Assembly (NCBI GenBank): GCA_016932045.1
Contig: JAFGDO010000010.1
Location: forward strand, 1,759-65,758
DNA: 64,000 nt
From: Candidatus Dojkabacteria bacterium
Lineage (GTDB): Bacteria > Patescibacteriota > Dojkabacteria > JAHIVN01
Reading direction: 5' to 3'
Shown here: piece after piece, positions 12,593 to 61,126 of the stretch
Numbering within the stretch: position 1 is the first letter of the stretch
Layout of the letters: each line of letters begins with the position of its first letter
Notes under the pieces: generated by a model
Seen by the model: only the letters and a program-made list of their open reading frames with translations
What the model was told of the DNA's origin: nothing
The model's database searches: none
Program-made: the position numbers and the translations under genes

Positions 12593-12816
12593 TTTTAAAA
12601 TTAATGTAACATTTATATAGTCTAATTTGCGTCTTGTTATATCTGAAACGATGACTAATTGCATTCCTTACAAATATATGTCATAAGAAGTGAAAGGCAA
12701 AAAGCATAAAGCGCTACGCTAAAAGTTACCAAGCTAGAAAGCTGAAAGCAAATAGAGAACAGCTGATAGCTATGAGATGTAAATTATGAGATATGAGTTA
12801 TTAAGATTTATAAACC

Positions 12817-26936: not shown

Positions 26937-29900
26937 ATGTTTAAAGCTCTATTCCAAGTAAGAAAATTTTCCTCAAAAGTGTTACCTTTAGCGGTAACTT
27001 TTTTTATATTAGGAAATTATTTTCTTCCTTTATTTAACATTGTCGATTTTAGTGTAAATGCAGCACCAAATGTACCAACCAATCTTGGGTGGAATACATC
27101 TGCAACTCATCCTGGTAATCCTGGATACAGACCAGTTGAAATTACCTGCGGAGGATATACGAATCAAAACTCAGTAGCTCATAACTGGAGTGATGAGTCT
27201 GCAAGTGGTGCAGTAAGTTACGAGAGACAATGGCGGGCACCTGGATCTGCAACTTGGAGTACAGATCCAACTTCATACGTTAATCCTTACACCTCATTTA
27301 GTTCTTTTGGTGGAGGTGGAGGCACAGAGGGAATATGGAATACAAGAGTACGAGGATATGATGCTACCGGAGATCCAAGTGCTTGGAGCAATGAATGCCA
27401 AATCACATATGATGTAACCGCCCCAGTTGTACAAATAACCAGCCCAGGTGACGGAAATGTACTTAACGGCTTTGTAGACATACGAGGAAGTGTCACTGAC
27501 ACTAATCCTGATCATTATTATCTTGTTGTAAGAGAATTAGATAACACAGTAATTGATGGTCCTGGCACTGTTTACAGGTATGACTCTTTCACAGATGAAT
27601 TGCTTTTTACATGGGACACTACTTCAGTTACAGACGGGGATTATATAATCCATCTGGCCGCTCGAGATGCTGCTGGGAATAGAGATGATGCGGCCGGATC
27701 ACTTCATAGGATAACAGTAACAGTAGATAACACAGCACCGCCAACTCCTTCTCTTGTTTGGCCAACAGATGGTGCAGTTATTCATCCATCTATAGCTATT
27801 CTTGATTGGACTGATGAAACCGATCCGCATGGACCTGTTACTTACAACTATCAAAGCTCTTGGAGCGGTGGTTCTTTTGGTCCTGTTTCTACTGGCACAA
27901 ATTCTTTTATAAATGCTACTGGCAGTGCTGATAATACTTATCTATGGTAAGTTCAGGCCTGTGATAGTTTAAACAATTGCAGTGCCTGGTCAGGTCCTTG
28001 GGAAGTCACTATTGACGGCACTCCACCTTACTCAAATTTCCTAACTCCAACTGATAATTCCTACCATAACTCTCCCATTAATATTTCCGGATTAACAGCC
28101 GACGATGGAAGTGGAGTAGATTATGTTGATATATCCTGGACTACTTATAATGGAGCATCTTGTGACGACTTGAGCTGGGCTTACCTTACAACATTTGATA
28201 ACACGGATAATGATACACCTTTTAACTGGCCGGAGTCCCCTTACGCTTGGACTCCAGCATCAGAGGGAAGCTACTGTCTTATGGCTGAAGGTACTGATAA
28301 TGCCGGTAATCTGGAAACAACTGCATATGCAACCAATGTTGTTTATGATACGACAGCTCCATTGGTGCAAATTACAAACCCAAGCGACGGAGATCTGGTA
28401 AATGGAACTGTAAACATTCAAGGATCAGTAACCGATGATAATCTTTGGAGATACTGGTTTGTTGTACAAAATTCTGGAGGTACAACTGTAGCTGGACCAG
28501 GGACTGTCTATCATGACGGACCGATTGTAAATGTTAATTTGGGATGGGATACAACTGCTGTTCCTGATGGAGACTATACCATAAAACTTGAAGCACGTGA
28601 TAAAGCAGACAATAAAGATCCAATCGACTCTGTCCACTGGATAACAGTAACAGTAGATAATACAGCACCGCCAACCCCTTCTCTTGTTTGGCCGTCAGAT
28701 GGTGCCGTTATTCATCCATCCATAGCCATTCTTGATTGGACCGATGAAACTGATCCACATGGACCTGTTACATACAACTATCAAAGCTCCTGGAGCGGTG
28801 GCTCTTATGGCCCAGTTTCAACAGGAACGAATTCTTTCATTAACGCTACAGGTAGCGCTGATAATACTTACTTCTGGCAAGTTCAAGCTTGTGATAGTTT
28901 GAATAATTGTAGCGCTTGGTCGAGTCCTTGGGAAGTTACTATTGACAGTACACCTCCTTACTCTACATTCTTCGAACCAACAGATAATTCCTATCACAAT
29001 TCACCGATCGCAATTAGTGGACAGACAGCAGATGATGGAAGCGGTGTTGATTACGTAGATATATCATGGACCACCTATAACGGAGCATCTTGTGATGATT
29101 TAGGTTGGACATACCTAACAACATTTAACAATACTGATAATGACACGCCATTTAATTGGCCTGAATCCCCTTATGCTTGGACTCCAGCATCAGAAGGTAG
29201 CTATTGTCTGATGGCTGAAGGCACTGATAATGCGGGTAACCTTGAAACGACAGCTTACGCTACAAACGTTGTTTACGACACAACAGCTCCATATGTTGAG
29301 ATCACAGATCCTCTAGATGGTCAATATGTTAATGGTACTGTTGATATCTGGGGTTTTATCATAGATGATAATCTGAGTCACTATAATATTGCTATTTATC
29401 CAGGAGGTGTTGATACATGGAACTTTTCCGAAAGACTTGAACAACAGACAGTATACACATCAGAATTTGGAAATTCACAAATCTACTCGTGGGATACAAC
29501 AATCTATCCTGATGGGGACTATCAGATCCGTTTAGCTGCACGTGATTTAGCAGGTAATAGGGACCCGATGACTCCATCTTATCCCAATGAGATAGGAGAT
29601 TCAGTTCACATAATCACAGTTACAGTTGACAACACAGCTCCAACGGCTATGTTTGCAAATCAGTCTGTAGATGAGACAGTTACTTCATGGCCTGGGTATT
29701 CATTACTTGTGAGTTCTGAGCCAATAGTAAATATCAACTGTTCAACACTAGAGACACTGCCAAGAAATGCAGAAACCTTACCAAATCCAGTTGCCTTTAA
29801 CTGTACATTCGAGGACCTTGCGGGAAATCTTGGAACTAGTTCATATACAGTTACTGTAAATGATATTGTACCTTCAGTAGTTGTTAATCCTTCTAGTATA

Positions 29901-30719
29901 ACAGTTACTACAGCAGATCCTGCAGTCACACTTACAGCAACAGGAAGTGGTGGTAATGCACCATTAACTTATAGCTGGTCAGGAGCCTGCGCTGGTTCAA
30001 GTAGTACCACTACCGCTCCAAGTACAGTAGGAACACACGTCTGTACTGTAACAGTCACTGACGCTGATGGTGATACTGCTTCTGCAACAGCCACAGTTAC
30101 TGTAAATCCAGCTTCAACACCACCTGCCGGAGGACAACCAGGAACAGGTGCAGGAGGAGGAACTGTTGGCACACAGGTGACAGTTCTTGGTGCAGAAACC
30201 GGAGGTGAAGGAGAGGTAAACGGTGATGCAGAGTCAGACGAACAGGAAGAAGACGGTGAAGTCCTTGGAGAAGAAGAGTGTGAAAATAAATCTAAAGTAA
30301 GAGGCTACATCTACTATGATAACAATGACAATGATCAGAAGGATAAAGGAGAAGAAGGACTTGAAAGTATAGAGGTTAAAATCTATCTAGAAAAGGACGG
30401 AGAAAAAGATGTTGTAACAACAGAGAGAACAGATGAGAATGGATATTGGGAAGCAGAGGTTTGTCCGGGAGAATATAAAGCAGAGATAAATAAAGACGAT
30501 CTTCCCGAAAATGTCGCTCTCTCAAGCGATGAAGTTCTAGGACTTAGTGTAAAAGAAGATGAAGAAATGAATGATATAAACTTCACTGTAAAGAAAACCC
30601 AAGGAATTGACTTCAGCTGGTGGTGGTGTCTAGTACCTCTTGCTATAGTCGCTCTTGTTTATCTTGCCAGTAAATTCTTTAAGCCGAAAGAAGAACAGGA
30701 TGTTAAGGTCGGGATGTAG
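26937..30719 (+). pseudogene. Very large (~1260 aa) secreted or membrane-anchored repeat protein, interrupted by a single in-frame TAA at 27948-27950. The ORF track reports it as 26937..27950 plus 28170..30719.
   Basis: The two ORFs share a frame and the 27951-28169 interval has no stops. Homology to the downstream repeat runs straight across the stop, which is CAA (Gln) in the paralogous repeat at 28878. Other features are an N-terminal signal peptide, three tandem ~310-aa repeats, Ig-like domains, an SdrD-B/CnaB-like domain (RGYIYYDNNDND...TDENGYWEAEV) and a C-terminal TM anchor with a basic tail. Confidence 0.7.
27400..29640 (+). repeat. About 2.3 tandem copies of a ~930-nt intragenic repeat with roughly 85-90% nucleotide identity between copies.
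   Basis: For example, 27715-27945 against 28648-28878 are near-identical (ACAGTAACAGTAGATAACACAGCACCGCCAAC...). The units begin near 27420, 28350 and 29280. Confidence 0.6.
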
Positions 30720-36427: not shown

Positions 36428-37084
36428 ATGTTAATCCAAACAAAAAATCTGACTCTAATATATGAAAACGGCAAGAATGATGTAACTGCAGTTAACGAGG
36501 TCAACATGACCCTTCCTGAAAAAGGTTTTTTCGGAATTCTTGGTCCGTCAGGCTCAGGAAAAACTTCGCTTCTTTACCTTTTATCTGGCATAAAACGTCC
36601 GACACTTGGAACAATTATTTACAGGGGAGAAACTTTTCCGCAATCATCTGGAGCAAGAAATAAGATAAGGAAAGAGGAGATGGGATTTGTATTTCAACAC
36701 CATTTCTTGATTAATTATCTCAGTACAGAGCAAAATATCCTTATTGGAGCATCCAGACAAGATCATGAAGCCCAGGAAAGAGTCCGGGAACTTATAGCTA
36801 AACTAGGTCTAGAAGAACTAGAAAAAAGACCCCCATATAAACTATCGGGGGGACAGAGACAGAGAGTTGCAATAGGAAGAGCGTTTGCAAATGAACCCAA
36901 GGTTGTTTTTGTCGACGAGCCAACAGCTTCTCTAGACCATAAAACGGGACAGAAAGTTGTCAAATTGCTAAAGGATTATTCGAAAAATGCATGCGTACTC
37001 TCCGTTACCCATGATCCGACAATTTTAAAGGGAGCAGATGGAGTATTCAAAATGTGGGACGGGAGATTGGAGGCTGGAAGTTAG
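36428..37084 (+). CDS. MacB/LolD-type ABC transporter ATP-binding protein.
   Basis: Walker A GPSGSGKTS, signature LSGGQRQRVAIGRA and Walker B VFVDEPTASLD. Confidence 0.85.
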   Translation: MLIQTKNLTLIYENGKNDVTAVNEVNMTLPEKGFFGILGPSGSGKTSLLYLLSGIKRPTLGTIIYRGETFPQSSGARNKIRKEEMGFVFQHHFLINYLSTEQNILIGASRQDHEAQERVRELIAKLGLEELEKRPPYKLSGGQRQRVAIGRAFANEPKVVFVDEPTASLDHKTGQKVVKLLKDYSKNACVLSVTHDPTILKGADGVFKMWDGRLEAGS

Positions 37085-37145
37085 ACGTTGGACGTGCGAT
37101 GTTAGACGTCAATCGTCAAACTTACTACTTATTACTACATTTCAA

Positions 37146-37502
37146 ATGCAGAACTACCACAATATAAATACCTGGAAGAAATCACATAAGCTGACAATGG
37201 AACTATACAAAGTAACTTCAAGATTCCCCAAGGAAGAGGTTTATGGAATAACAAATCAGCTTAAAAGATGTTGTTCATCTATTCCTGCAAATATTGCAGA
37301 AGGATGTGGGAGAAGAACGAATAAGGACTTATTGAGATTCTGTTACATTGCACTTGGATCTGCAAATGAAACTGAATACTTTTTACTTCTTTCAAAGGAT
37401 CTTAGTTACTTGGGTACAAAAGAATATAAAGCTTTAAATGAAAAGATAAACGAAATCAGACGCATGCTGATTAATTTTATTAAGAAACTTGATCCGAAGT
37501 AG
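37146..37502 (+). CDS. Four-helix-bundle protein (PF05635 / 23S rRNA IVS protein family; DGR Avd homolog).
   Basis: WKKSHKLTMELYKVTSRFPKEEVYGITNQLKRCCSSIPANIAEGCGRRTNKDLLRFCYIALGSANETEYFLLLSKDL shows the full family signature. The ORF-track start at 37038 overlaps the ATPase gene, so the internal ATG at 37146 is preferred. Confidence 0.75.
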   Translation: MQNYHNINTWKKSHKLTMELYKVTSRFPKEEVYGITNQLKRCCSSIPANIAEGCGRRTNKDLLRFCYIALGSANETEYFLLLSKDLSYLGTKEYKALNEKINEIRRMLINFIKKLDPK

Positions 37503-43933: not shown

Positions 43934-44239
43934 ATGATAAAGCGTAATGAACCATTTGTATGCATAAATTGCAAGAAAAAAGTAAAACCTGCCCTATCCG
44001 GCAAGTGCAGAAATCACTGTAATTTTTGCCTATTTTCACAGCATATTGATATAGTCCCGGGAGATAGGAGACATCCTTGCAAAGGCATAATGAAGCCAAT
44101 AAGGATAGAAAAGCGGAAAAAAGGGTTATATATTTTACATAAATGCGAGAAATGCGGGCTTAAAAAGTGGAATAAAATTCTAGAAGATGATAGAATCAGT
44201 AGTCAGTATAAAGTAAACAACACGAAGAAAGCGACCTAA
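43934..44239 (+). CDS. Cys-rich zinc-ribbon protein (RNHCP-like motif CRNHCNFC) inserted between infC and rpmI.
   Basis: A 101-aa ORF with CxxC...CxxxC...C...CxxC spacing and a basic C-terminal tail. Confidence 0.5.
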   Translation: MIKRNEPFVCINCKKKVKPALSGKCRNHCNFCLFSQHIDIVPGDRRHPCKGIMKPIRIEKRKKGLYILHKCEKCGLKKWNKILEDDRISSQYKVNNTKKAT

Positions 44240-44989: not shown

Positions 44990-47900
44990 TTATGGTACAA
45001 ATCTTCCACCATTATCCCTTACCCTAATAAAGTAACCTCCAACCTCAAATATCTTGAAATCATTTCCATAAGGTATATCATTTTCCTTGATGAAGTTTTC
45101 ATATCTTCCATTATCCCATCTAGTTATTGTATCAGCCTTAATCCCGTCACCGTTTATCGCATCTAGTAAACTATCTGATGTGTATTCTGTCTCTGGTGAA
45201 ACAATACTAACAAGATTCCAGCCTCTCTCAAATTCTATTGGCAAACTTTCTTCAATTTCAGCTCCCTTAAACATTACCTTGCCAGCATTATAGACTTTAA
45301 TAAAATACCCTTGCCCAGGAATAATACTAAAATTATTTGAAAAACTTATTCCATTTCTTTGAGAATAAACATACCACCTCCCTCCAAAATAAGTTGCTAC
45401 ATGAGTAGCATATACTCCTTGATCATTGATATTTTCAAGTAAAGACTTTGCATCTCCAACATTACTCCCTTCCTCTATCTTAGTATAATTGGGAATGGAT
45501 ATTATGTTCCAACCCACATCTAAATTTATAAAGACTCCATTTGATATTTTTACCTTTTCAAGACTTGATATCTTTACTTCAGTCTCCATAGGATCCATCT
45601 CCCCATTATTATTCCAATCCCAATATATTATTGAATTTCCACTCAATTTAACTATATCGCTAGTTATCTCCATCTTTCTTTCCTCCGCAACCTCCGCCTC
45701 GACTTTTCTGATAAGGCCTTTATTTGTATCATCAACATATTTATACCCATCACTACTAGTGCAACCTAAAGCATCTTTAAGCATTTCCATATTTGTATCT
45801 CCTGGATCGGGATTATGATATTCTCCTCCTGGTCCCGTTAGCGTTCTCTCGCTGTGTCCGATGACGGAACATTTATCATGGATAAAACCTGAGACTTCCC
45901 ATGTTTCTATCAGATCAACCATAGAATCAATCTGTTCTTGCGAAAAATCACTACCTGACTGTCCAACATTTTCTATAGCAATACCACGAATATTTCCTTC
46001 TTGTTCACCCGCATGAAGAGCAACCTGTTCAATATTAGTAACCTGAGTTATAACACCATTTCGATCAATGACGACATGAGCATAAGGAATAAGATTCCCA
46101 TCTGGATCAATAACATTATCTCTCCAATATGTAGCAATATTTAGTCCAGTGACATCGTCTCCGGTTTGATGAATCCACACTGCATCCTTATTTGATGTAT
46201 TATTTGAAGAATTATAATTATATGTACTTAATAAATCCTGATCATAATTATTTGACACATGTTCTCCTACCAATGAGGTTCTATCTCCACTAGAAATATC
46301 ATAATATGTGATTTCTAAATCTATAGGTGCTAAACCCACGTTTGTTATCGGAGGACAGTCATCTCCTGATGCAATAGGAAAACAAGGATCATCTGGATCT
46401 GCGTCGTTTATATCATTTATGCCATCTCCATCGGAATCAAGTCTAGGATTAACACAAGAACCTGATAAACACTCTAATCCATACCTACAATTATTAAAAT
46501 AAACACCCGAAGCCTGCCTCCATTCGCAGGGTTCACCATGACTTTTATCGCATACACCAAATAATGCTATACAGTCAGGACGACAATCGGGCTGATTATG
46601 AACTGGTACACAATCATTATCGTATTGAACAATCTCTACCAAACTATGGTACGAACCAGCCAAGAAAGCTTCTTTACTACAATTAAACCAATGCTGTCCA
46701 TTTTGAACAATATTATTGCTATCACTTAAAGATCCATTACAAGCACTTCTATACTCATGAGGATACGTATCAACTATATGGACTGTACCATTCAAACATA
46801 TATAAATATCTCCACTCCCTAACTCTATAAAACTTCCCTCAGGATGCCCTTCAATACCTAACTCATTGCAGGTTATATCACGTTTCGTATCCAAAATAGA
46901 AACTTCCCAAAACGCTTCGTAATTATTATTTATTTGTCTAATGCTGCATAACGCTAAATAGGTTACATCGTTTTCTTCAAACTTCCTGCTACCATGAACA
47001 CTTATACCTTCTGGAACATATCTTTCAAGCAAATCGTGGTACGAACTAACAGACTCCCAGTGATCCCTACCTACATCGCATGACATATTTTCGTTTACAC
47101 GATCTTCAACATCACTTTGTTCCTGACCTACTGCGCACTTATCATTTCTACCTGTAGGCATTTTTGTACATCCATATGAACCACATTCCTGATTTAAAGT
47201 ACAATCATCTGATTTCGTACAATAATACAAATTATTACCATAACAATATAAACCTACCCCTCCCCAATCATCACTACTTATTGTAACAACTCCGTCACCT
47301 TTTGTAGTTGGTCCTCCGACATCCGCAATATTATTACAAATACCATATTGACCTGGCCCAAAATCGCTAATTTCCCTACACCCAGCATCTCCACAATCAG
47401 TATAAATTTTACAATTTGACTTTGTCAGACATGCATATACATCATTATCGTAGCAGTACAATCCCTCCCCCTTCCATTTATCGTCAGGAATTTTTTGATC
47501 AGATGTAACAGATGGTGTTCCACCACTAAAACATCTATCATTTTTTCCTACCGGCATCTTCTCACACCCAGATTCATTACATTCTAGGTTCTTTGAGCAA
47601 GTAGTTTTATTTGAGCAATAATATAAGTCATTGTCATAACAGTATAATCCGGCTCCTCCCCAATCTTCATCACTAATGTATTGTGTTGTGCCTGGAGTAG
47701 CTGGAGTAGAAGGAGGAACCGTTGTTGTAGTACCAACGCATTTTGAATTCCAACAAGGCTGTGGTTTACAGATTGAATCACAGCTTTTAGGATTTCCCCA
47801 GTCCCAATCTCCTAAATCAGGGTTGCAATAATAGGCTATACAAGTATCATTAGTACAATGCCAACCACTTAATCCACCGCAATCAGCCGCATAAATCTGA

Positions 47901-48766
47901 TTTATTAAACTACTATTACTTTTTTCTAATTCGATAGGACTATATGGTTCTGTATATATATCACCCAAAGGTTGTAATTTTTCCGAAGGTATGTTTCTAA
48001 CTTGCGTCCATTCGTTTGAAGTAATAATTTCAAGATCAACAATGAAATCGCTATTTATATCAAAAAACTCTTCAAGATTTTCTTGTCTAAGTAAACCTAT
48101 ATCTATACTCCAGCCGGACTCGGTATTTATCAAAGTACTAGCAACCTGAGATTGTTTTTCATGAATGTTGCTATCATCTGTTTCTATTGACTTAAGACTC
48201 AGCAAAACAATCCCTTCATCCAAGGATTCTCTCTTAGAATTAAATACCCTGCCATATACTGGATATGGACTTTTTAATTCATCTGCGATATCAATTGTTT
48301 CAAGTGGTGGATACTCATAATCTACACTCCTCATACCTGTACTTACCTTATAGTAATATTTACTATTAGGATTTAACTCTCTTAGTATTACATAATGAAC
48401 ATAATATTCACGCCACTGATTTATTTTATATACTCCATATTCAACCTCTTCAATATCTCTTTCATCATAAGCTCTATCTTTGCCAATGTATCTAAAAATA
48501 GGGAACCATTTATCCTCTTTTGCATAAATAACACTACCACAAGTTGGACTATCGCTAATCCATGTAACTGTCGCACTCGTACCTGTAATATTTGTAACTC
48601 TAACATCTCTTATCTCTGATGTCCTTTCGCTTAAAAAATTTACACCAATCACAATTATTGTTAAAAGGAAAATAACAATCGTAGAAACTACCAACAGCAG
48701 TCCCATCTTAGAGGATCTAAAAAAAACTAAAAACCTATTCAAATAATTATCTTTAGAATTTGCCAT
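44990..48766 (-). CDS. Giant (1258 aa) membrane-anchored extracellular protein combining an N-terminal FN3-like (purple acid phosphatase N-like) domain, three Cys-rich ~55-aa repeats, a Ca-binding-like D-rich motif, an Amidase_2 (PGRP-type N-acetylmuramoyl-L-alanine amidase) domain and a C-terminal repeat region.
   Basis: An N-terminal TM helix. The FN3-like stretch is VRVTNITGTSATVTWIS...LNPNSKYYYKV. The Cys-rich repeats are DWGGAGLYCYDNDLYYC...C..EC...GC (x3), and the D-rich motif is DSDGDGINDINDADPDDP. Amidase_2 motifs are YAHVVIDRNGVITQ...ALHAGE...NIRGIAIENVG...VIGHSE. Confidence 0.8.
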   Translation of the reverse strand: MANSKDNYLNRFLVFFRSSKMGLLLVVSTIVIFLLTIIVIGVNFLSERTSEIRDVRVTNITGTSATVTWISDSPTCGSVIYAKEDKWFPIFRYIGKDRAYDERDIEEVEYGVYKINQWREYYVHYVILRELNPNSKYYYKVSTGMRSVDYEYPPLETIDIADELKSPYPVYGRVFNSKRESLDEGIVLLSLKSIETDDSNIHEKQSQVASTLINTESGWSIDIGLLRQENLEEFFDINSDFIVDLEIITSNEWTQVRNIPSEKLQPLGDIYTEPYSPIELEKSNSSLINQIYAADCGGLSGWHCTNDTCIAYYCNPDLGDWDWGNPKSCDSICKPQPCWNSKCVGTTTTVPPSTPATPGTTQYISDEDWGGAGLYCYDNDLYYCSNKTTCSKNLECNESGCEKMPVGKNDRCFSGGTPSVTSDQKIPDDKWKGEGLYCYDNDVYACLTKSNCKIYTDCGDAGCREISDFGPGQYGICNNIADVGGPTTKGDGVVTISSDDWGGVGLYCYGNNLYYCTKSDDCTLNQECGSYGCTKMPTGRNDKCAVGQEQSDVEDRVNENMSCDVGRDHWESVSSYHDLLERYVPEGISVHGSRKFEENDVTYLALCSIRQINNNYEAFWEVSILDTKRDITCNELGIEGHPEGSFIELGSGDIYICLNGTVHIVDTYPHEYRSACNGSLSDSNNIVQNGQHWFNCSKEAFLAGSYHSLVEIVQYDNDCVPVHNQPDCRPDCIALFGVCDKSHGEPCEWRQASGVYFNNCRYGLECLSGSCVNPRLDSDGDGINDINDADPDDPCFPIASGDDCPPITNVGLAPIDLEITYYDISSGDRTSLVGEHVSNNYDQDLLSTYNYNSSNNTSNKDAVWIHQTGDDVTGLNIATYWRDNVIDPDGNLIPYAHVVIDRNGVITQVTNIEQVALHAGEQEGNIRGIAIENVGQSGSDFSQEQIDSMVDLIETWEVSGFIHDKCSVIGHSERTLTGPGGEYHNPDPGDTNMEMLKDALGCTSSDGYKYVDDTNKGLIRKVEAEVAEERKMEITSDIVKLSGNSIIYWDWNNNGEMDPMETEVKISSLEKVKISNGVFINLDVGWNIISIPNYTKIEEGSNVGDAKSLLENINDQGVYATHVATYFGGRWYVYSQRNGISFSNNFSIIPGQGYFIKVYNAGKVMFKGAEIEESLPIEFERGWNLVSIVSPETEYTSDSLLDAINGDGIKADTITRWDNGRYENFIKENDIPYGNDFKIFEVGGYFIRVRDNGGRFVP

Positions 48767-48848
48767 AGAGGATAAATAAAAGATTATGTATCTTAAATAA
48801 TAAAAATATTATGATATAGAAACTACATTGTGTCAAAGGTAGGAATTA

Positions 48849-50114
48849 TTACCAATCTTCCACATCTTTTACCACTTTTTCCTCCCACCATTTCTTACAA
48901 TTACTGTTTATAAAAACTATAATCCACCCAGCTCCAGCAGTAAATACTATAAGACCGAACATTGTTCTAAAAAGCCAGTAATCTTCAAATCCAGTACTTG
49001 GCAAATCAGTTCCTGTATTTTGAGTTGTTTGTTGTTCCGCTTCAGGTGCAGGATCCTGCGAAGTAGTAGCAGTGACTTCAGATTCAATTGTAAAATTACT
49101 GCCAGCAGTTGAAGCAAAAATCTCGTCATTATAGCCTGTTTTCTCAGCCCGAATATTTAAAATTTTATCTTCAAGTTCATCTAATGCCACAGCGCTTACA
49201 TACCCCGTATAACTATCCGGACCGTATAATTTCACCTGCAATCCATTTTCTGACGAGTAGGGAAAATAAGAAACAAGATCTTGTTCCCTCGCTATACCAA
49301 TTACAAGTTCTACTCCGCCTGTAGCGTTATATATTCCACTAACTATCGACGACTCCTCTCCATGTATGTCAATCTGTTTTGCAAGTACTAAATAATCTAC
49401 ATCAGAAAAACCTGCAACCTTATTTGAAGTTATAGAAACCGAGGCAGGAGTTGAGGGTGAAGAGGTAAGTTGTGCACTTGCATAGCTATATGGCTTCCCA
49501 TTATCATTAAATTCCTCATCATTTGAGACAATTGTGAAATAATACGTTAAGCCTTCTATATCTAGATCTTCATCTGAATTAATAATGGTCACATGATGGG
49601 TAAAGCGTTTTTCTAGATTATTAGTGTTTTCTTCTCTGTCGTCATACTCAGTACGCACAAGTTCTGTTTCATCTGTACCAAATTGAATATAACCTGTTTG
49701 TGCTGTATCTGTAACCCAAGCAATACTCCATATCCTAAAATCCTCATTTGTGATTTGAACTTTTTGAGGAGTATTTTCTTTGATTGTTTCAGTTGCTTGC
49801 TCCTCTGGTTTTTCCTCTACACTAGGCATCTCTTCTTCTACTTCACCCTCAGGTTCCGCAGCATACACATCATTAGCTCCAAGTCTTACTACAGGAAGAG
49901 ATGGAACACCTTGACTGCTTAAGCATACTAACCCCTCGGGACAATTTGACACCGAGCCATCGGACTCCCATAAACTTTCTAATTCTTCATCGGTTCGAGT
50001 AGAAGGACCCGTAGTTTTATCAGTACCGCTTTCTCTTGTAAAGAAAAAGAAAATACCTATACCAATAGATATTGCAATAAACACCAAAATTATTAGCACT
50101 ATTTTATCCTTCAT
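48849..50114 (-). CDS. Surface protein with an N-terminal signal/anchor, an FN3-like domain and a C-terminal LPSTG sortase-type sorting signal.
   Basis: The C-terminus reads DLPSTGFEDYWLFRTMFGLIVFTAGAGWIIVFINSNCKKWWEEK, which is LPxTG followed by a hydrophobic segment and a basic tail. The N-terminal module is paralogous to the two flanking genes. Confidence 0.6.
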   Translation of the reverse strand: MKDKIVLIILVFIAISIGIGIFFFFTRESGTDKTTGPSTRTDEELESLWESDGSVSNCPEGLVCLSSQGVPSLPVVRLGANDVYAAEPEGEVEEEMPSVEEKPEEQATETIKENTPQKVQITNEDFRIWSIAWVTDTAQTGYIQFGTDETELVRTEYDDREENTNNLEKRFTHHVTIINSDEDLDIEGLTYYFTIVSNDEEFNDNGKPYSYASAQLTSSPSTPASVSITSNKVAGFSDVDYLVLAKQIDIHGEESSIVSGIYNATGGVELVIGIAREQDLVSYFPYSSENGLQVKLYGPDSYTGYVSAVALDELEDKILNIRAEKTGYNDEIFASTAGSNFTIESEVTATTSQDPAPEAEQQTTQNTGTDLPSTGFEDYWLFRTMFGLIVFTAGAGWIIVFINSNCKKWWEEKVVKDVEDW

Positions 50115-50123
50115 TACTTAATT

Positions 50124-50858
50124 CTATTCATTTATTTGTATGATTTGAGTCGTAACTCTTCCTTCCCCCCTGTCACCTCCCTCCGCAACAATATATAGGG
50201 TAGCACTATTATATTCAGTAAAGTAATCGGAAAGGTCGGCTAACCTTAAATTCGAAAGATCAAATGTATACCGCCTATCTAGAGTCAAAGCCGATAATTC
50301 ATTTGATACCAAACCATCTTTTTCAGCATATAAGTAAACTATCAGATCCTCATTTGAACCTGATGAGTCTTCAACTTCTCCCTTAACTGGTTGTGGCATT
50401 TGCACAGTCTCCAATGTAGAACCAGTTCTAAATTGGTAAAGCTGATTTTGAGACATCTTGTATTCTTTCCCGCCAACGGCAATGAGATAATAATAGCTTG
50501 AATCAGGGTTTAATCCGACAAGATCAACATAGTGAAGGGTATACTGTCCATTTGCCTCTCCTATATCTCTAATATCAAATGCAATCTGACTAACTTCTGG
50601 TTGATTCCCAAACTTAACAAACCCGATTGTTTCAACCGTAGGAGTGACCCATGAAATCGTAGCCGATGTATCTGTAATATTTGTAACTACAACATTCTGG
50701 GGGACCTCTGTTGGAAGAGCTTTTGTGCGCATCTCGGTTATATACATAACACCGCTGACAGAAAGCGGGATCAAGATTACCGCGATAAAAAGGATAATGA
50801 TCAATGTCCTAAATTTTCGTTGCTGTTTTTTTTGTGGAAAGGACTCATCTTCTGACAT
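50124..50858 (-). CDS. Membrane-anchored protein with an FN3-like (PAP-N-like) extracellular domain. It is the third paralog of the cluster.
   Basis: An N-terminal TM helix, then VVVTNITDTSATISWVT...LNPDSSYYYLI, matching the same domain in the two genes at higher coordinates on this strand. It lies 9 nt from the preceding gene, which suggests an operon. Confidence 0.6.
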   Translation of the reverse strand: MSEDESFPQKKQQRKFRTLIIILFIAVILIPLSVSGVMYITEMRTKALPTEVPQNVVVTNITDTSATISWVTPTVETIGFVKFGNQPEVSQIAFDIRDIGEANGQYTLHYVDLVGLNPDSSYYYLIAVGGKEYKMSQNQLYQFRTGSTLETVQMPQPVKGEVEDSSGSNEDLIVYLYAEKDGLVSNELSALTLDRRYTFDLSNLRLADLSDYFTEYNSATLYIVAEGGDRGEGRVTTQIIQINE

Positions 50859-55046: not shown

Positions 55047-58025
55047 TTACGGACTAACAACATTAATAGTAATGTTTTGCGAATAGATAGTACTGCCATT
55101 TGATAAAGTTAGTGCGGCCTGAAGGGTATAACTTCCGACTTGAGTAGGCGCCCATGTACAGGTATATGCCCCTCCACCGGAATCGCTCATGGTCTCACTT
55201 GGCAGTGACCCACCTGGTCCAGTAATCAAAAGTCTTGCTGATGTTACACTGGTCCCGCCGTAACGCTGAGCAGTTACTGTGATTGCAGCCATTTCTAGGC
55301 TTACACCATTTTGTGGATCAGTAATCGACACGACATCTCCTACAATTATCCTTACCGAAGCACTTCCGGTACGTCCAGCACCATCATAGGCTTTCACAAT
55401 CAGATCATGCCAGCCATCCGATACTGTAGCAGGTATAGTTACAGATGCCACAAATGGATTATTTGTGGCCTGAGTAATATAGGTTCCATCAACATATACC
55501 TCAATTTTTGAAATGCCTGATGACGTAGCATATGCTCTTGCTTCAACATCGACTTTCCCTCCCTTTGATACTGCAGTATTTGCTGCAGGTTTAGAAATAG
55601 TTACCCACGGGTTATCCTCTCCAGTTGGGTTTCTATTGATATCGCAATATTCTGTAGGAGGAGCACCTTGGCTGAAATATGAATCCCATGCAGCCTGCCA
55701 TGTATCCTTTGGGGCTTTAATATATCTATAAACCTTTTCGATCACTAAGCCTAGCTGTTCATCAATGTCGCGAGCAAGTCTATCCTGCTGGTCGCTACAT
55801 ACACGGAATAACTGTGTTGCAGAATCATCCTGCGGTGGAAGTTTGTCTTGAATGAATAGATCGCTTATTGCCTCACAGTGCTCAGTTGCCAAAAGCCCAC
55901 TATCACGGCATACAGAGGCTGACACAACTCCTCCTGGGCGTGTAAACCTCGATGGAGTAAACCTTGGAAGTATTTTATTTGTATAATCAATCCATATTGG
56001 TCTTGCAGCTGTATATCCATATGCTGATTTATTCATACGGGAGTTGTCGTTGTTCCCGGCCCAGACCCCAGTAACAACTTCTGGAGTCCAACCCATATAC
56101 CATACATTTGTATTATTATCATTTGTTCCAGTTTTACCAGCCTGATCCCATCCTGCTGGTGGCGTATAGTGGTAGTTCCGCGCGGTGTCATTCACAAGAT
56201 AAACGGCTCGTTCATCGGCTACCCTTACCCCCTGTCTTACCTCATCTGTATTAAAGTCATAGATTACATTGCCTTCCTTGTCCTCAATTTTTAATATTGG
56301 CGATATCGGATGATAAATTCCACCTGTTGCCATAACCGCATAAGCGTTTGTATGTTCAACTAACTTTACATCCCCTGCACCTAAGGCAATTGCGTCTCCA
56401 TAATTTTCGGGATTTGTAAATGTCGAGTAACCAAACTTTTCAAGTGTATTTATAAAATTAGTCACTCCGACTATTTCAATTGCTTCAACAGCAGGAATAT
56501 TGAGTGAATCGCGGAGAGCTTGCCTTAAGGTCAAAAGACCATGGTATCTGCCGTCATTATTCTTTGGCCTATAATTGCCATCAAAAGGAACATCCATATC
56601 CAGAAAAGGATATGCCGGATACAGTTGTCCTGTTTCAAAGCCAGCATAATAAACTACCGGCTTAAGGGAAGAACCCGGTTGTCTCAAAGCAACTGCTACA
56701 TTCACATTTGGCTCAAATTTACAATCAGCTCCAAGTGTACATCCTTCTGGCGAAGCAGTTCCAAAATAGTCAGCCGAACCAACCATCGCTAAAACTTGAC
56801 CAGTTTTTGGATCAATTGTAACCAAAGCTGCATTATTTCCTCCATGAGCCTTTACAACATTCTCAACACCATTCAGTATAGATTCTTCCGCTATATTCTG
56901 CATATCAAGGTCTAGACTTGTAGTGATACGAAGTCCACCTCTTTCAACCTCTGATAAAGTAAACGGCCTACCATTATTGTAGTTGCCCTTTGTTAACTCG
57001 TCCTCAACATAAAATACAAAGTGAGGAGCTTCTATATTTATGTCGCTGGTCTTATATGCTATTTTCTGCTCTCTTGCCTGCTGTATTTTTTCATCTGTAA
57101 TTAGATCTTCCTCGCCCTCCCAGCCATTATACTTTCTTGCATAAGCATTTATTTTGTCTTTTTTACTTTGCAGCTGATCGAGAACATAATTTTGTCTTTG
57201 TATAGCTAGTTCACGTGCCACCTTCACGTCAGATGCAAAAAGAGGAGAATAGAGCCCTGGTGCCTGAGGCAGTCCTGCAAGAAGAGCCGCCTCCCCGAGC
57301 GACAGTTCAGTAACATCTTTACCAAAATAAATTCTAGCAGCAGTTTTCACGCCATAAGTATTTCCGCCAAAGCCGATTTCATTTAGATACAACTGCAAAA
57401 CATCCTTTTTATCATACTTCTGCTCAATTCTTAAACTTAATATTATTTCTTTGATTTTTCTCTCATAAGTTCTCTCCGTTGTAAGAACCGTGTTTTTAAT
57501 CATCTGTTGGGTAATAGTTGATCCTCCGCGAGGACTGCCAACTTTGAAAACCTCGTACATTCCAGCTTTCACAACTCCTCCAAGATCCACCCCCTTGTGA
57601 GTATAAAAGTCAATGTCCTCAGCAGCAAGAAAAGCCCACTGAGCTTCTAAAGGAACCTCATCAATCTGAACTATATCCCTATTTTCATCCCCATGTATCT
57701 TGTAAAGCTCTTTCCCATTCCTATCGTAGACATAACTTGTCAGATCCTGACCTCTTTCAAAAGGTTCATCGGGATTTGGAAGTTCTGAAGAATACTTAGC
57801 AATAACTGAAAGAGTAAAAATAGTGGTAATAAATATGACAACAAAAACAATTCCGGCAAAAATACCCAGAACTTTCTTTACTCTCCCCTTTAAACTATCT
57901 TTTCCAAGCACAGATTTACTCCAGCCCTTCTTTCCTCTTTTCGATTTCAATTTCTTCAAACGCTTCTGGAAGCGGGACTTGTACGTTCTTCTTCTATTGT
58001 AGTTTATCGCTGTCTTATAAGCCAT
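55047..58025 (-). CDS. Class A penicillin-binding protein (PBP1A-type), copy 2, with a C-terminal Ig-like (Big) extension.
   Basis: GGSTITQQMIKN, PGSSLKP (SxxK) and KTGTNDN (KTG) motifs, and a basic N-terminal tail plus TM anchor as in copy 1. About 250 extra C-terminal residues carry Ig-like repeats. Confidence 0.9.
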   Translation of the reverse strand: MAYKTAINYNRRRTYKSRFQKRLKKLKSKRGKKGWSKSVLGKDSLKGRVKKVLGIFAGIVFVVIFITTIFTLSVIAKYSSELPNPDEPFERGQDLTSYVYDRNGKELYKIHGDENRDIVQIDEVPLEAQWAFLAAEDIDFYTHKGVDLGGVVKAGMYEVFKVGSPRGGSTITQQMIKNTVLTTERTYERKIKEIILSLRIEQKYDKKDVLQLYLNEIGFGGNTYGVKTAARIYFGKDVTELSLGEAALLAGLPQAPGLYSPLFASDVKVARELAIQRQNYVLDQLQSKKDKINAYARKYNGWEGEEDLITDEKIQQAREQKIAYKTSDINIEAPHFVFYVEDELTKGNYNNGRPFTLSEVERGGLRITTSLDLDMQNIAEESILNGVENVVKAHGGNNAALVTIDPKTGQVLAMVGSADYFGTASPEGCTLGADCKFEPNVNVAVALRQPGSSLKPVVYYAGFETGQLYPAYPFLDMDVPFDGNYRPKNNDGRYHGLLTLRQALRDSLNIPAVEAIEIVGVTNFINTLEKFGYSTFTNPENYGDAIALGAGDVKLVEHTNAYAVMATGGIYHPISPILKIEDKEGNVIYDFNTDEVRQGVRVADERAVYLVNDTARNYHYTPPAGWDQAGKTGTNDNNTNVWYMGWTPEVVTGVWAGNNDNSRMNKSAYGYTAARPIWIDYTNKILPRFTPSRFTRPGGVVSASVCRDSGLLATEHCEAISDLFIQDKLPPQDDSATQLFRVCSDQQDRLARDIDEQLGLVIEKVYRYIKAPKDTWQAAWDSYFSQGAPPTEYCDINRNPTGEDNPWVTISKPAANTAVSKGGKVDVEARAYATSSGISKIEVYVDGTYITQATNNPFVASVTIPATVSDGWHDLIVKAYDGAGRTGSASVRIIVGDVVSITDPQNGVSLEMAAITVTAQRYGGTSVTSARLLITGPGGSLPSETMSDSGGGAYTCTWAPTQVGSYTLQAALTLSNGSTIYSQNITINVVSP

Positions 58026-58453: not shown

Positions 58454-59083
58454 TCATTTTTCACCCATAGGCTGATCCTCCTTTGGCGGAAATTGTTCAT
58501 ATCCATTTCCCTTCACCAATAAAAAAGTTGTATAATTCTTCTTATTATCCTGTAAATTACCTGCAATAACATCCAAGTCATAAATATCCGAAAGGATTTT
58601 CGAACCCATGACTGCTATATTTCTTGGCAGTTTCTTTGCACTCATCTTTTTTGCCACCATTGCATGATCAATTAAATCACCCTTACCGCTCACCTTTTTC
58701 AAATTTGGATACCTTTTAGCCAAAGTAGATTTGCACTGAGCTAAAACTTGAGGATGCGTCATGATTGTATCTATTTCAGCTAATTCTACACCCTTTCTTT
58801 TCATAAGGTAGTGAGAAATAATAATTGAAATCTCTCCGGCTACTTTGAACTTATACCTACCCATTGCATTTATAGATTCGTGCACTATTCCTCCGACTGA
58901 GTTGTGAATAGCAAACAGTCCATAATCTATTTTCCTTTCTTTCAGATGCCGAAGCACTCTTTCGGAAGTATAAAGGTACTTTACTTCATAATCTCTAATC
59001 TTGTGCCTTTCAATATAAGTCATAATGGCTTGCTCATTGAAGCTGCCTCTGCCACCTTGTATTCCGTATAGTACTTTACTCAT
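58454..59083 (-). CDS. Prephenate dehydratase (PDT) domain protein, paralog of 6690..7277.
   Basis: YGIQGGRGSFNEQA, AIHNSVGGIV, THPQVLAQC and NYTTF motifs, with no ACT domain. Confidence 0.75.
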   Translation of the reverse strand: MSKVLYGIQGGRGSFNEQAIMTYIERHKIRDYEVKYLYTSERVLRHLKERKIDYGLFAIHNSVGGIVHESINAMGRYKFKVAGEISIIISHYLMKRKGVELAEIDTIMTHPQVLAQCKSTLAKRYPNLKKVSGKGDLIDHAMVAKKMSAKKLPRNIAVMGSKILSDIYDLDVIAGNLQDNKKNYTTFLLVKGNGYEQFPPKEDQPMGEK

Positions 59084-59599: not shown

Positions 59600-61126
59600 T
59601 CAATTCTGGTTTTGAAAAACAAAAGGTGGTTTTTTGATATAAATGGTCATTCGATCTTTCTCTGGTTTATATTGACCATAATTGAATAGACTTTGAAAGA
59701 GGTTCCCTTTTAAAGCTTCTCCAAGAGTATAAAGATATATATCTCCCCACGTATGCATACACTTTGGAATATAATCTCTTTTCCCCAAAAAAGATGATCC
59801 CCCTCCGTCTACTCCAGGATTTAAATCTCCTATTGCCCTAGCATAGTCTCCCTCATCAGGGTTCCAAGTAAATCCAAACTCGCTTAAATTCTTGATCTCA
59901 TCTCCTTGCGGTCCAGTTTGTCCAATGCTCCTAAAAACATCTTCAAGTTTTACTTCATTAACTCCTGTTTCATCAGGCAGAATTATTACATTCCCACCAT
60001 CAACGAACAAAGTTCCTCTATCATGATTTCCTCGAGCATATCCAACTGCTACTTTTACTCCTCCTCTCATATCAAACTCACAGTTCCTGATAACAGTAAA
60101 TGATTGTGGGAATACAAATATAATTCCATTATCAGTTCTATCATCAATCACGCCGCATCTTACAAATCTGCAGCTATCTATCATGACGTAACCTGAAAGT
60201 ATATCTATAGCAAAACCTGTTCCCAAACCACTTGGTTCAAGATCACAATCTTCAAACATACAATTTGTAATTCTTGACTGTCTCGTCATCTCAAAAGCAG
60301 TATCGAATGAGAGAGCACCACCACATATTAATCCTTTACAATTTTGGAAAGTACACTTATCAATATTAACCTGAGCTTTACCATGGACAACTATACCACC
60401 ACCATCTACAACGTTCCAAACGGTATATCTTTTATCTGTTCTTGCAATATTAACTTTTTTTGCTCTTGCTCCAGCATGGCCATTTGTAAATCTTACATTT
60501 TCGATTTGTATATCGACACATTCATCTAAGTAACTTCTTCCCTCGCCATCAACATACATACATCTGCATTTCCCTTCTGCATCAAGAATTACTTTCCCTT
60601 GTCCTTCAATTTGAATACCACTATGTCTTGTATCTAGAACTAAAGGCTTTCCGTTTGGATAATATGTTCCTTCTTGTAAAACAACTTTATCTATCCCAGA
60701 TCCTTCTCTTTTTCTATCTCTTGCTATCCAATCAAGAGAATTCTGTAAGGAATATCTTGGATCGTCTTTAGTGCTCTCATCATGAGGCTGAATATTATAA
60801 AACTGATTCCCAGATGAATCTACTTCTATAGTTATATGCCCATCCGGAGGATCTAGTACTCTATCATATTCTCCAGTATTTCTTATATAAGAATCGGGAT
60901 TTGGAACTAGAGCTTCACAATTAGGAAGTCCTACCAAATTTCTTAATAAATTTCTCCTTGAAACACGTGCTTGAGGATCGCTGCATCTACCTTGATCCTC
61001 GGAAGTGAATCTTGGTACTGCAAAACGTGATAATACACATGCAGCAACCGCAATAGCAGCGGCACTAATTGCACCTCTTCTTGAAATAGTCATTATTCCA
61101 TTTTGAGTTTCTTGTTTTTCGATCAT
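59600..61126 (-). CDS. Secreted right-handed parallel beta-helix (pectate-lyase-fold) protein with a Tat-type signal.
   Basis: An N-terminal twin-arginine signal (SRRGAISAAAIAVAACVLS). Repeated PbH1-like turns follow (NCMFEDC, CTFQNCKG, IRNCEFD, NVRFTNGHAG). Confidence 0.6.
   Translation of the reverse strand: MIEKQETQNGIMTISRRGAISAAAIAVAACVLSRFAVPRFTSEDQGRCSDPQARVSRRNLLRNLVGLPNCEALVPNPDSYIRNTGEYDRVLDPPDGHITIEVDSSGNQFYNIQPHDESTKDDPRYSLQNSLDWIARDRKREGSGIDKVVLQEGTYYPNGKPLVLDTRHSGIQIEGQGKVILDAEGKCRCMYVDGEGRSYLDECVDIQIENVRFTNGHAGARAKKVNIARTDKRYTVWNVVDGGGIVVHGKAQVNIDKCTFQNCKGLICGGALSFDTAFEMTRQSRITNCMFEDCDLEPSGLGTGFAIDILSGYVMIDSCRFVRCGVIDDRTDNGIIFVFPQSFTVIRNCEFDMRGGVKVAVGYARGNHDRGTLFVDGGNVIILPDETGVNEVKLEDVFRSIGQTGPQGDEIKNLSEFGFTWNPDEGDYARAIGDLNPGVDGGGSSFLGKRDYIPKCMHTWGDIYLYTLGEALKGNLFQSLFNYGQYKPEKDRMTIYIKKPPFVFQNQN

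Follow-up and report, generated by a model that had tools for sequence, protein, structure and literature searches.

The proteobacterial amidases AmpD, AmiD and AmpDh2-3 (1J3G/2Y28, 2BH7 and 4BJ4) are small proteins of one or two domains, AmpD being cytoplasmic and AmiD and AmpDh2 outer-membrane lipoproteins, and in the AmpD/AmiD amidases the zinc is held by a His-34/His-154/Asp-164 triad (PMC2829048). The LysC and LysCS endolysin amidases of Clostridium intestinale (6SSC and 6SRT) are phage-type enzymes without a scaffold, and their third zinc ligand is a Cys. In CPR bacteria, the Cys-rich proteins of Peregrinibacteria (PMC4736985) and the giant surface proteins of Vampirococcus (PMC8080830) are large, variable from strain to strain or paralog to paralog and predicted to be extracellular, and a role in attachment has been proposed for them; the word 'amidase' does not occur in the text of either paper, and neither reports an amidase fusion. 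We describe here a protein of Candidatus Dojkabacteria in which a domain of the AmpD/AmiD type lies inside a TM-anchored, Cys-rich protein of 1258 residues. Little is understood of the ways in which CPR/Patescibacteria attach to other cells and exploit them, and a catalytically intact amidase carried on a lineage-specific surface scaffold offers a concrete target for expression and assays. To our knowledge, no member of the Dojkabacteria has been cultured.

The window is the whole 64,000-nucleotide stretch analysed (contig JAFGDO010000010.1 of assembly GCA_016932045.1), and the gene lies on its minus strand as an open reading frame with an ATG start, whose coordinates and length agree with those given in a previous sequence-only reading of this DNA. 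An identical 1258-aa open reading frame is present in the independent Logan assembly SRR13394437, which excludes an assembly chimera. The NCBI entry for the protein, MBN2015684.1 (Candidatus Dojkabacteria), starts at M21, is 1238 aa long and is named N-acetylmuramoyl-L-alanine amidase, so the assignment of the enzyme is not new. What is new is its context, a rare paralog family and an orphan scaffold; the enzyme itself is ordinary and already annotated. The features of the gene and its upstream neighbours are as follows.

50124..50858, minus strand: first gene of the cluster, 244 aa, with a TM segment and an FN3-like domain
48849..50114, minus strand: upstream co-directional gene, 421 aa, with an N-terminal TM segment and, at the C-terminus, LPSTG, a TM segment and a tail
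48808..48836, minus strand: sigma-70-like promoter match TTGACA-17-CATAAT, 11/12 positions, a match to the consensus only
44990..48766, minus strand: whole gene, ATG start, 1258 aa, stop codon at 44990-44992
48638..48703, minus strand: single TM helix, residues 22-43, hydropathy up to 3.1
48332..48616, minus strand: FN3-like domain, residues 51-145 (Pfam Pur_ac_phosph_N), 60% identical to the ortholog P0002
47897..48331, minus strand: second half of the conserved N-terminal module, residues 146-290
47738..47881, minus strand: first Cys cluster, 8 Cys, residues 296-343
47681..47737, minus strand: Pro/Thr-rich linker VGTTTTVPPSTPATPGTTQ, residues 344-362
47135..47680, minus strand: three tandem 6-Cys repeats, residues 363-544 (363-412, 425-477 and 495-544)
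46352..47098, minus strand: Cys-rich domain, residues 557-805, first half of the 'amidase cassette'
46382..46438, minus strand: single calcium-loop-like D-x-D-x-D-G motif DSDGDGINDINDADPDDPC, residues 777-795
45737..46219, minus strand: Amidase_2 / PGRP-fold zinc amidase, residues 850-1010
45584..45619, minus strand: EF-hand/SdrD_B-like loop DWNNNGEMDPME, residues 1050-1061
45254..45532, minus strand: C-terminal repeat 1, residues 1079-1171, with GWN at its start and GYFI[KR]V at its end
44993..45241, minus strand: C-terminal repeat 2, residues 1176-1258, kept to the final residue in all paralogs

The central region, previously read as an Amidase_2/PGRP zinc amidase from a set of motifs that are all found in the protein, is recognized as such by profile and by predicted structure. 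Pfam PF01510 matches residues 861-973 (E=6.3e-14) at 52.9 bits, above its gathering score of 26, and an AF2 model of the domain (pLDDT 81.7, pTM 0.81) confidently adopts the Amidase_2/PGRP fold. A Foldseek search of the PDB gives 65 matches at E<=1e-3, and all of the 50 matches listed are Amidase_2/PGRP structures, the best of them with TM scores of 0.62-0.70. When a 20-sequence profile is compared with solved amidases, 6SRT (1e-25) and AmpD (4e-22) are followed by XlyA, AmpDH2, T7 lysozyme and AmiD. The key residues are H866, H897, H918, N925, E932, H971, N985 and D987, and the columns of the first six are 95-100% conserved across 148 representatives, with the query keeping all of them. Two of the zinc ligands, H866 and H971, fall in columns that are His in 148 and 145 of the 148 respectively, and the third, D987, which was mapped by profile alignment onto the K-T-D-P-G motif of AmpD, is in a column with Asp in 108 and Cys in 14. 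The catalytic Glu, E932, lies within the sequence I-A-I-E (equivalent to AmpD E116 and PlyL E90) in a column that is Glu in 141 of the 148. The domain thus has the Amidase_2/PGRP fold with a His-His-Asp triad, H866/H971/D987, and the catalytic Glu E932; the sequence-only reading had let its assignment depend on the profile score, the zinc ligands and the catalytic residue, and the score is above threshold and the triad and E932 are present. The domain is probably an active extracellular zinc N-acetylmuramoyl-L-alanine amidase, predicted to free stem peptides from the glycan strands of peptidoglycan while tethered to the cell by the N-terminal anchor and positioned by the flanking modules.

Two other accounts of the domain bear on this prediction. 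It could be a non-catalytic peptidoglycan-recognition module that only binds muropeptides and serves the scaffold in lectin-like adhesion or sensing, and in keeping with this, position 985 is Asn in both the query and P0002 where AmpD (K162) and T7 lysozyme (K128) carry a Lys, whose mutation in either enzyme lowers activity, and P0002 has a Gln at the near-invariant H918 position. The domain is also strongly diverged, with matches at E<=1e-10 to only four of 1.84 billion representatives, two of which are the query and P0002 themselves while the other two reach the score only through three domain copies each, and many of its structural neighbours are non-catalytic PGRPs. However, PGRPs of this kind typically lack a zinc ligand, whereas the query and P0002, at only 38-40% identity, both keep the full set of three ligands together with the catalytic Glu, and the Lys column varies among related, presumably active amidases (H 54, K 28, R 6 and T 4 of 148), so that Asn at 985 excludes neither Amidase_2 membership nor activity; we regard a purely binding role as improbable. 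A recent acquisition of a phage endolysin-type module, fused by chance to a surface protein and without an adapted cellular role, would account for the top PHROG matches, which are lysis amidases and endolysins (E=2.7e-9), and for the best structural matches, the Clostridium endolysin amidases 6SSC and 6SRT. We consider this very improbable, since a tblastn search of 50,697 phage records gives no match at E<=1e-3, the domain has a GC content (0.377) in line with that of the gene and the window, and the cassette persists with all its Cys and catalytic residues in the 36%-identical syntenic ortholog, which argues that it is old and under constraint.

The N-terminal membrane anchor proposed earlier is present as one hydrophobic stretch at residues ~22-43, and the K/R residues on its N-terminal side point to a signal anchor that leaves the N-terminus inside and places the remainder outside. 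The protein has 45 Cys (3.6%), all of them past the helix, an arrangement that fits an extracellular location; of the description as a large extracellular protein, the size of 1258 aa and the single TM anchor stand as stated, and the extracellular placement is compatible with the 45 Cys beyond the helix. The FN3-like domain was absent from the sequence-only reading and is identified through the Pfam match to Pur_ac_phosph_N (33 bits over residues 56-145; cutoff 30). The first Cys cluster (296-343) is the most variable part of the protein, with 17% identity to P0002. The Pro/Thr-rich linker at residues 344-362 had also been overlooked. The C-terminus (...RDNGGRFVP) has neither an LPXTG motif nor a helix of the kind expected of a sortase anchor.

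The three Cys-rich repeats are borne out by pairwise local alignments with z-scores of 14-28 relative to shuffles and by their Cys spacing, which is the same in all three, C-x7-C-x5-C-x5-C-x4-C-x10/13-C; repeats 1 and 3 remain 77% identical at the DNA level. This family-specific module has no Pfam, PDB or fold match, and neither has the Cys-rich domain at 557-805, whose only counterpart is in P0002 (38% identity, with the Cys positions kept). Within that domain, DSDGDGINDIND at residue 777 fits the pattern D-x-D-x-D-G-x-x-D-x-x-D, which arose in 8 of 20,000 shuffles of the protein (~4e-4), and the D-rich segment is 68% identical with that of the ortholog. The D-rich pattern noted earlier is thus real, but its designation as thrombospondin-type-3-like finds no support beyond the pattern itself, since only one copy is present and the isolated segment of either ortholog gives no match to Pfam TSP_3 (PF02412) at E<=10. 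The second calcium-loop-like motif (1050-1061), which had gone unremarked, has D1050, G1055, D1058 and E1061 invariant in five paralogs. The C-terminal repeats are also present as reported, as two units (z=12.8), but measure ~83-93 aa and not ~60 aa. Scanned alone they have no Pfam or NCBIfam match, they have no sequence match in the PDB and no fold match in the PDB or BFVD, and they match none of the GW/SH3_8, SH3b, choline-binding (CW_binding_1), CWB2, LysM, SPOR and PG_binding families.

The earlier description of the protein as unusual is justified by its distribution: in 185,579 species genomes and 241 million metagenome records we find a family of ~11 members in ~6 Patescibacteria genomes, and just two of these, the query and P0002, contain the amidase cassette. 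Because nine of the ~11 members lack the amidase, and in at least three genomes the locus is without it, it is not a core housekeeping function of the locus. P0002, a 36%-identical ortholog at a syntenic locus, shares 60% identity with the query in the FN3-like domain, 55-59% in the C-terminal repeats and 17-38% in the middle, and the C-terminal repeats are one of the two parts of the family that are best conserved among paralogs and genomes alike. The family is modular, with conserved ends and a swappable Cys-rich middle.

The usual location of family members is a conserved cluster with pheST on one side and rplT on the other, with synteny at two further loci (L001 and L003). The cluster begins with the gene for the 244-aa protein, a paralog that stands alone and corresponds to the N-terminal module of the giant protein (residues ~17-235), and the gene for the 421-aa neighbour, also syntenic in L001 and L003, encodes a protein that scores 14.6 against an LPXTG-anchor model with a cutoff of 15.9, a borderline value. 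The promoter-like match falls inside the 82-bp gap 5' of the amidase gene, and the 3' neighbour is rplT on the opposite strand. A polymorphic toxin/immunity effector was considered and rejected, as the amidase is internal and not C-terminal and rplT lies next door with no immunity-like gene adjacent; a Pfam scan revealed no LXG, Rhs, PAAR or similar domain.

Which wall the amidase acts on is the more difficult question. We lean weakly towards the organism's own wall, on which the protein would act as an accessory enzyme of autolysis or remodelling, a tentative reading by analogy that falls a little short of probable. The lean reflects the combination of an amidase and conserved tandem repeats in a family with conserved ends and a variable middle, as in Gram-positive surface-protein families, in which the member with the amidase is an autolysin. 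We read the protein as a surface protein, disulfide-rich and held by a signal anchor, from a small Dojkabacteria-specific family. At the N-terminal end its members share a TM helix followed by an FN3-like and a beta domain, and at the C-terminal end two orphan ~90-aa repeats; in the query and one ortholog the middle carries a ~460-residue cassette of a Cys-rich domain followed by the AmpD/AmiD-type Amidase_2. The enzyme could serve to split the septum or to turn over the wall, and the C-terminal repeats would bind a conserved component of the self wall. The window also encodes two class A PBPs, MurB and GlmS, so the organism makes its own peptidoglycan. Several points weigh against this lean: the catalytic domain is ~820 residues from the anchor, past the Pro/Thr-rich linker, and could sit outside a thin wall; the amidase is accessory; the C-terminal repeats have no detectable relation to known wall-binding modules; and the cultivated CPR bacteria are all episymbionts (PMC11623550).

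The wall of a partner, which the sequence-only reading had suggested, or of prey is a possible target but, we think, an unlikely one. The protein would then be an adhesin stalk whose amidase strips stem peptides at the point of contact, the C-terminal double repeat binding peptidoglycan or another surface polymer of the host bacterium and the loosened host sacculus easing attachment, pilus passage, secretion or nutrient uptake; a variant would have it scavenge muropeptides shed by neighbouring cells. The swappable Cys-rich middles would be a toolbox of host-interaction cassettes, and the C-terminal and 6-Cys repeats would be new binding folds. Consistent with such a role, the amidase comes as an accessory cassette within a surface-protein family that is variable and expands in tandem, its catalytic domain is in the distal third behind the Pro/Thr-rich linker and the Cys-rich modules, and the organism belongs to the CPR, whose cultivated members are obligate episymbionts (PMC11623550). 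Large Cys-rich extracellular proteins of CPR bacteria have been put forward as attachment factors (PMC4736985), and the secreted peptidoglycan hydrolases of Vampirococcus were proposed to degrade the host wall (PMC8080830). However, no host is on record for Dojkabacteria, and no immunity-like gene accompanies the amidase gene, with rplT downstream on the other strand. The C-terminal repeats, the putative binding tip, are moreover well conserved, whereas a module that tracks the surfaces of diverse hosts would be expected to vary unless its ligand is universal, such as peptidoglycan. Extracellular Amidase_2 enzymes with C-terminal repeats are also mostly autolysins of the cell's own wall, which counts against a partner-directed role.

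Either target would make the protein informative. If it cuts a foreign wall, it would be a first molecular handle on how Dojkabacteria breach the wall of a host; if it is an autolysin, it would show reduced genomes building wall-remodelling enzymes out of lineage-specific parts. Candidate new binding folds are the C-terminal repeat (~90 aa), the 6-Cys repeat (~50 aa) and the Cys domain (~250 aa).

With AmpD, AmiD and AmpDh2-3, the query shares the fold, the His-His-Asp triad, the 'DPG' motif of the third ligand, the catalytic Glu in an 'IGIE' motif and the 'SAH.../..HAG' motifs, although identity is only ~20-22% and their Lys162 is replaced by Asn. LysC and LysCS match best both by sequence profile (1e-25) and by structure (E ~6e-8 to 1e-7, TM 0.62-0.70), but the query has Asp in place of their third-ligand Cys and a large scaffold. 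The modular amidases of Gram-positive bacteria are a further point of reference, together with the LytA/choline-binding proteins of S. pneumoniae, Ami and the GW proteins of Listeria and the Cwp proteins of C. difficile. AmiA and AmiE (S. aureus Atl-AM, 4KNK; S. epidermidis AmiE, 3LAT) are among the structural matches of the query, and as in such autolysins its Amidase_2 (850-1010) is followed by conserved C-terminal tandem repeats (1079-1171 and 1176-1258), within a set of paralogs that conserve the anchoring or positioning modules and swap the functional part. Unlike them, it has an N-terminal TM anchor, and its enzyme domain comes only after ~800 residues made up of FN3 and Cys-rich modules. 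In its size, TM anchor, 45 Cys and variable middle (~11 paralogs), the protein fits by description the class of large Cys-rich extracellular proteins of CPR bacteria.

We document here the topology signals, intact active site, fold and modular family of a 1258-residue, Cys-rich protein (the giant protein) that carries an N-terminal membrane anchor and an Amidase_2 domain. Its open reading frame lies exactly where the sequence-only reading had placed it (44990-48766, minus strand, ATG start, 1258 aa), and an independent Logan assembly of SRR13394437 contains the same 1258-aa ORF, residue-for-residue identical, so that the fusion is not an assembly artefact and a chimera is ruled out. The NCBI entry (MBN2015684.1, Candidatus Dojkabacteria), already named N-acetylmuramoyl-L-alanine amidase, differs at the start (48706-48766, minus strand), beginning at M21 to give 1238 aa instead of the 1258 aa read from the ATG at 48766. 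The Logan gene call speaks for the longer form, as do K/R-rich N-terminal extensions that align in the paralogs; neither candidate ATG (M1 or M21) has a clear Shine-Dalgarno sequence ahead of it. An antisense 109-aa ORF with a TTG start inside the amidase gene (45489-45818, plus strand), hydrophobic and low in complexity, is most likely spurious.

The proposed identity of the amidase domain is borne out by a PF01510 match at residues 861-973 (E=6.3e-14; 52.9 bits, gathering score 26), and in sequence the domain is strongly diverged. Searching the PDB with the domain alone by phmmer returned only noise, a word-indexed homolog search with it returned nothing, and HMMER run exhaustively over 1.84 billion representatives recovered 360 relatives at E<=1e-3 and only four at E<=1e-10, these being the giant protein, its ortholog P0002 and two others that owe their rank only to having three generic Amidase_2 copies apiece. 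For the same reason the matches P0006 and P0007 were rejected as relatives. A two-sequence amidase profile gave weak amidase matches in the PDB, and strong ones required A3, a 20-sequence alignment anchored on the giant-protein domain, whose profile finds the solved amidases 6SRT (1e-25) and AmpD (4e-22), followed by XlyA, AmpDH2, T7 lysozyme and AmiD. AlphaFold2 with A3 produced a confident model (pLDDT 81.7, pTM 0.81), in agreement with the assignment that structure prediction had been suggested to check. Foldseek gave 65 PDB matches with E<=1e-3, and each of the 50 listed is an Amidase_2/PGRP structure, with LysC/LysCS endolysins, AmpD, PGRPs, AmiA/AmiE, T7 lysozyme and PlyL at the head.

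The columns of H866, H897, H918, N925, E932 and H971 are 95-100% conserved among 148 aligned representatives, with all six residues kept in the giant protein, and the third-ligand column holds D987 (D in 108 and C in 14 of the 148). When aligned with AmpD, the profile motifs IGiE, GH and ktDpG fall on E116, H154 and K162-x-D164; the zinc triad His-34/His-154/Asp-164 is documented for AmpD/AmiD amidases (PMC2829048). The sole departure is N985 at the Lys position, where the column is variable in the family (H in 54, K in 28, R in 6 and T in 4). The Amidase_2 score, zinc ligands and catalytic residue on which the sequence-only reading hinged are all present, and the domain belongs to Amidase_2, its zinc site complete and its catalytic Glu in place.

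The membrane anchor is a single strongly hydrophobic stretch (about residues 22-43) with Lys/Arg on its N-side, as had been proposed, and all 45 cysteines lie past it, 41 of them within residues 296-804. It is followed by an FN3-like Pur_ac_phosph_N domain (Pfam, residues 56-145) that the earlier reading had not recorded. The three Cys-rich repeats recognized at that stage are real (residues 363-412, 425-477 and 495-544; z = 14-28 by local alignment against shuffles, self-BLAST having reported no repeats). They share the spacing C-x7-C-x5-C-x5-C-x4-C-x10/13-C, and at the DNA level repeats 1 and 3 retain 77% identity. Sortase anchoring of the giant protein was rejected, there being no LPXTG motif.

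The thrombospondin-type-3-like motif survives as a D-rich pattern and not as a family label: DSDGDGINDIND at residue 777 matches D-x-D-x-D-G-x-x-D-x-x-D, a pattern found in 8 of 20,000 shuffles, and the segment is kept in P0002, but membership in the thrombospondin type-3 class was rejected because there is one copy and no Pfam TSP_3 match. A second calcium-loop-like motif, DWNNNGEMDPME (residues 1050-1061; 45584-45619, minus strand), reads D-x-N-x-N-G-x-x-D-x-x-E, and five paralogs all keep its D, G, D and E; it falls in a low-confidence model segment before the C-terminal repeats, where one paralog has a weak SdrD_B match. The C-terminal repeats likewise exist, as two units (z=12.8), although each spans about 83-93 aa and not the ~60 aa first estimated. 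A model of this module from an alignment of five sequences is moderately confident (pLDDT about 80 over the repeats) and consists of two copies of a beta-beta-alpha-beta-beta-beta-beta unit, for which neither the PDB (best E=0.024, TM about 0.15) nor BFVD offers a significant fold match. PDB profile searches were empty for the C-terminal module and for domain 557-850, Pfam returned nothing at E<=10 for any orphan segment scanned by itself, and the Cys modules and C-terminal repeats match nothing in Pfam, NCBIfam, PDB sequences, or PDB or BFVD folds. A word-indexed homolog search with the C-terminal repeat profile found one 136-aa fragment only. Both repeats open with 'GWN', but a GW/SH3b identity was rejected given the lack of a Pfam match and the helix in the predicted repeat. 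The extreme C-terminus (...GGYFIRV...GG.F.P; 44993-45010, minus strand) is kept to the final residue in 8/8 full-length paralogs, which suggests that the free end is itself functional, for example in docking or strand donation.

Full-length relatives number five proteins among 5.8 billion clusters, two loci among 185,579 species-representative genomes, and four loci in 241 million metagenome records, two of the four being contigs already found. A local census by HMM, covering every locus retrieved, puts the family at about 11 distinct members from about six Patescibacteria genomes. The N-terminal module (TM, FN3-like and beta domain) and the two C-terminal repeats are common to every member, the Cys-rich middles differ, and the 6-Cys repeat is present in one to three copies in five. 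The census places the amidase only in the giant protein and P0002, in both as part of a cassette of about 460 residues, whose first half (residues 557-805) is a Cys-rich domain confined to this pair (38% identity, Cys positions conserved). The two proteins are best conserved at their ends (FN3 60%, C-terminal repeats 55-59%) and less so in the amidase and Cys domain (38%) and the first Cys cluster (17%).

Three co-directional genes, with 9 and 82 bp between them, form a cluster that ends with the giant gene, and the 82-bp gap immediately upstream of that gene contains a sigma-70-like match (11/12, a consensus match only). The 244-aa product of the first gene is a paralog of the giant protein's N-terminal module that stands alone (BLASTP 3e-16). 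The second product, of 421 aa, carries a TM helix at the N-terminus and LPSTG plus TM at the C-terminus, with an LPXTG-anchor score just under the cutoff. The cluster is flanked by pheST and by rplT-rpmI-infC-thrS, and the pheST/rplT arrangement recurs in the related loci L001/L002 and L003. Where the window genome has one copy of the giant gene, related genomes have a tandem array of 2-3 paralogs at this same locus, their Cys-rich middles differing; the family member at L004 sits in a different genomic context. The tandem-expanded loci are:

L001, 6713-17668, plus strand
L003, 5253-12452, plus strand
L007, 1-6557, plus strand

The MAG containing L003 (CAZNER010000004.1) is labelled 'Candidatus Saccharibacteria', which may be a misclassification, as its pheST-[FN3 cluster]-rplT gene order matches that of the Dojkabacteria contigs and its family members are 46% identical to theirs. 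A 101-aa Cys-rich ORF (43934-44239, plus strand) lies between infC and rpmI/rplT in an otherwise classical thrS-infC-rpmI-rplT string, and its syntenic counterpart in L001 is listed under PF12647 RNHCP. Neither a trafficking domain nor an immunity gene is present, and on that ground an effector-immunity or polymorphic-toxin system was rejected. A 154-aa ORF (37038-37502, plus strand) scores 133.6 bits as 23S_rRNA_IVP and a weak, sub-cutoff 29.8 bits as bAvd-like, Avd proteins being companions of diversity-generating retroelements (DGRs). DGR-driven diversification was rejected, the window containing no template/variable repeat pair.

The following genes, including two class A PBPs within 64 kb of a reduced genome, indicate that the organism makes its own peptidoglycan:

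14849-17173, plus strand, class A PBP
55047-58025, minus strand, class A PBP (992 aa) with two Big_7 Ig domains and a filamin-like tail
10826-12664, GlmS
19571-20731, MurB

The window ORFs that were scanned include neither a sortase nor a Dsb protein, nor any further peptidoglycan hydrolase. Another variable surface-protein locus, the second in this window, consists of two neighbouring Ig-like proteins (26937-27950 and 28170-30719, both plus strand; Big_3_3, Big_13 and SdrD_B matches) that share a 300-nt direct repeat (27709-28008 and 28639-28938, 87% identical). At 59600-61126 (minus strand), a right-handed beta-helix protein of 508 aa (PF13229) is possibly another surface or polysaccharide-active protein. 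Two prephenate dehydratase paralogs (6690-7277, plus strand; 58454-59083, minus strand) lie within the 64 kb, which is unexpected where little amino-acid biosynthesis is anticipated.

The N-terminal anchor would hold an extracellular zinc N-acetylmuramoyl-L-alanine amidase to the cell, and we consider it highly probable that the predicted domain is an active, N-terminally tethered enzyme of this kind. A binding-only, PGRP-like role is improbable for a domain that keeps its zinc ligands and Glu, and a recent phage-derived passenger, for which phage tblastn gave no match, is more improbable still. As for the target, we tentatively lean towards the organism's own wall. The order seen here, an Amidase_2 domain and directly after it conserved tandem repeats, is that of the classical autolysins (Atl, LytA, Ami). 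The family, whose paralogs keep their ends and swap the middle, resembles the choline-binding, GW and Cwp families, where conserved modules keep the protein attached to the wall of its own cell and the member bearing an amidase is the autolysin. A module following diverse host surfaces should moreover vary, yet few parts are better conserved than the C-terminal repeats.

That the enzyme acts on a foreign wall or foreign peptidoglycan, as first suggested, is a less probable but testable proposal. Within the family the amidase is an accessory cassette that 2 of about 11 members have and the loci of several genomes lack, and it lies about 820 residues from the anchor, past a PT linker. The organism is also a CPR bacterium (Patescibacteria); cultivated CPR are described as episymbionts (PMC11623550), Cys-rich giant proteins of CPR have been proposed as attachment factors (PMC4736985), and secreted hydrolases have been proposed to degrade the host wall (PMC8080830). 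A literature search on Dojkabacteria hosts and on the giant-protein family found nothing.

The enzymatic call is ordinary and had been annotated before; the scaffold and its orphan modules are the new part. The combination of TM anchor, FN3-like domain, orphan Cys modules, Amidase_2 and orphan double repeat is undescribed in the literature searched, and it occurs in a rare, usually locus-conserved family. Compared with known systems, the enzyme is an Amidase_2 member of the AmpD/AmiD His-His-Asp type, having every testable defining feature except the non-universal Lys. The giant protein can be likened to modular autolysins in its working, although it stands outside every known autolysin family because its C-terminal repeats fail all known wall-binding-module tests, and by description it belongs with the large, Cys-rich surface proteins of CPR bacteria.
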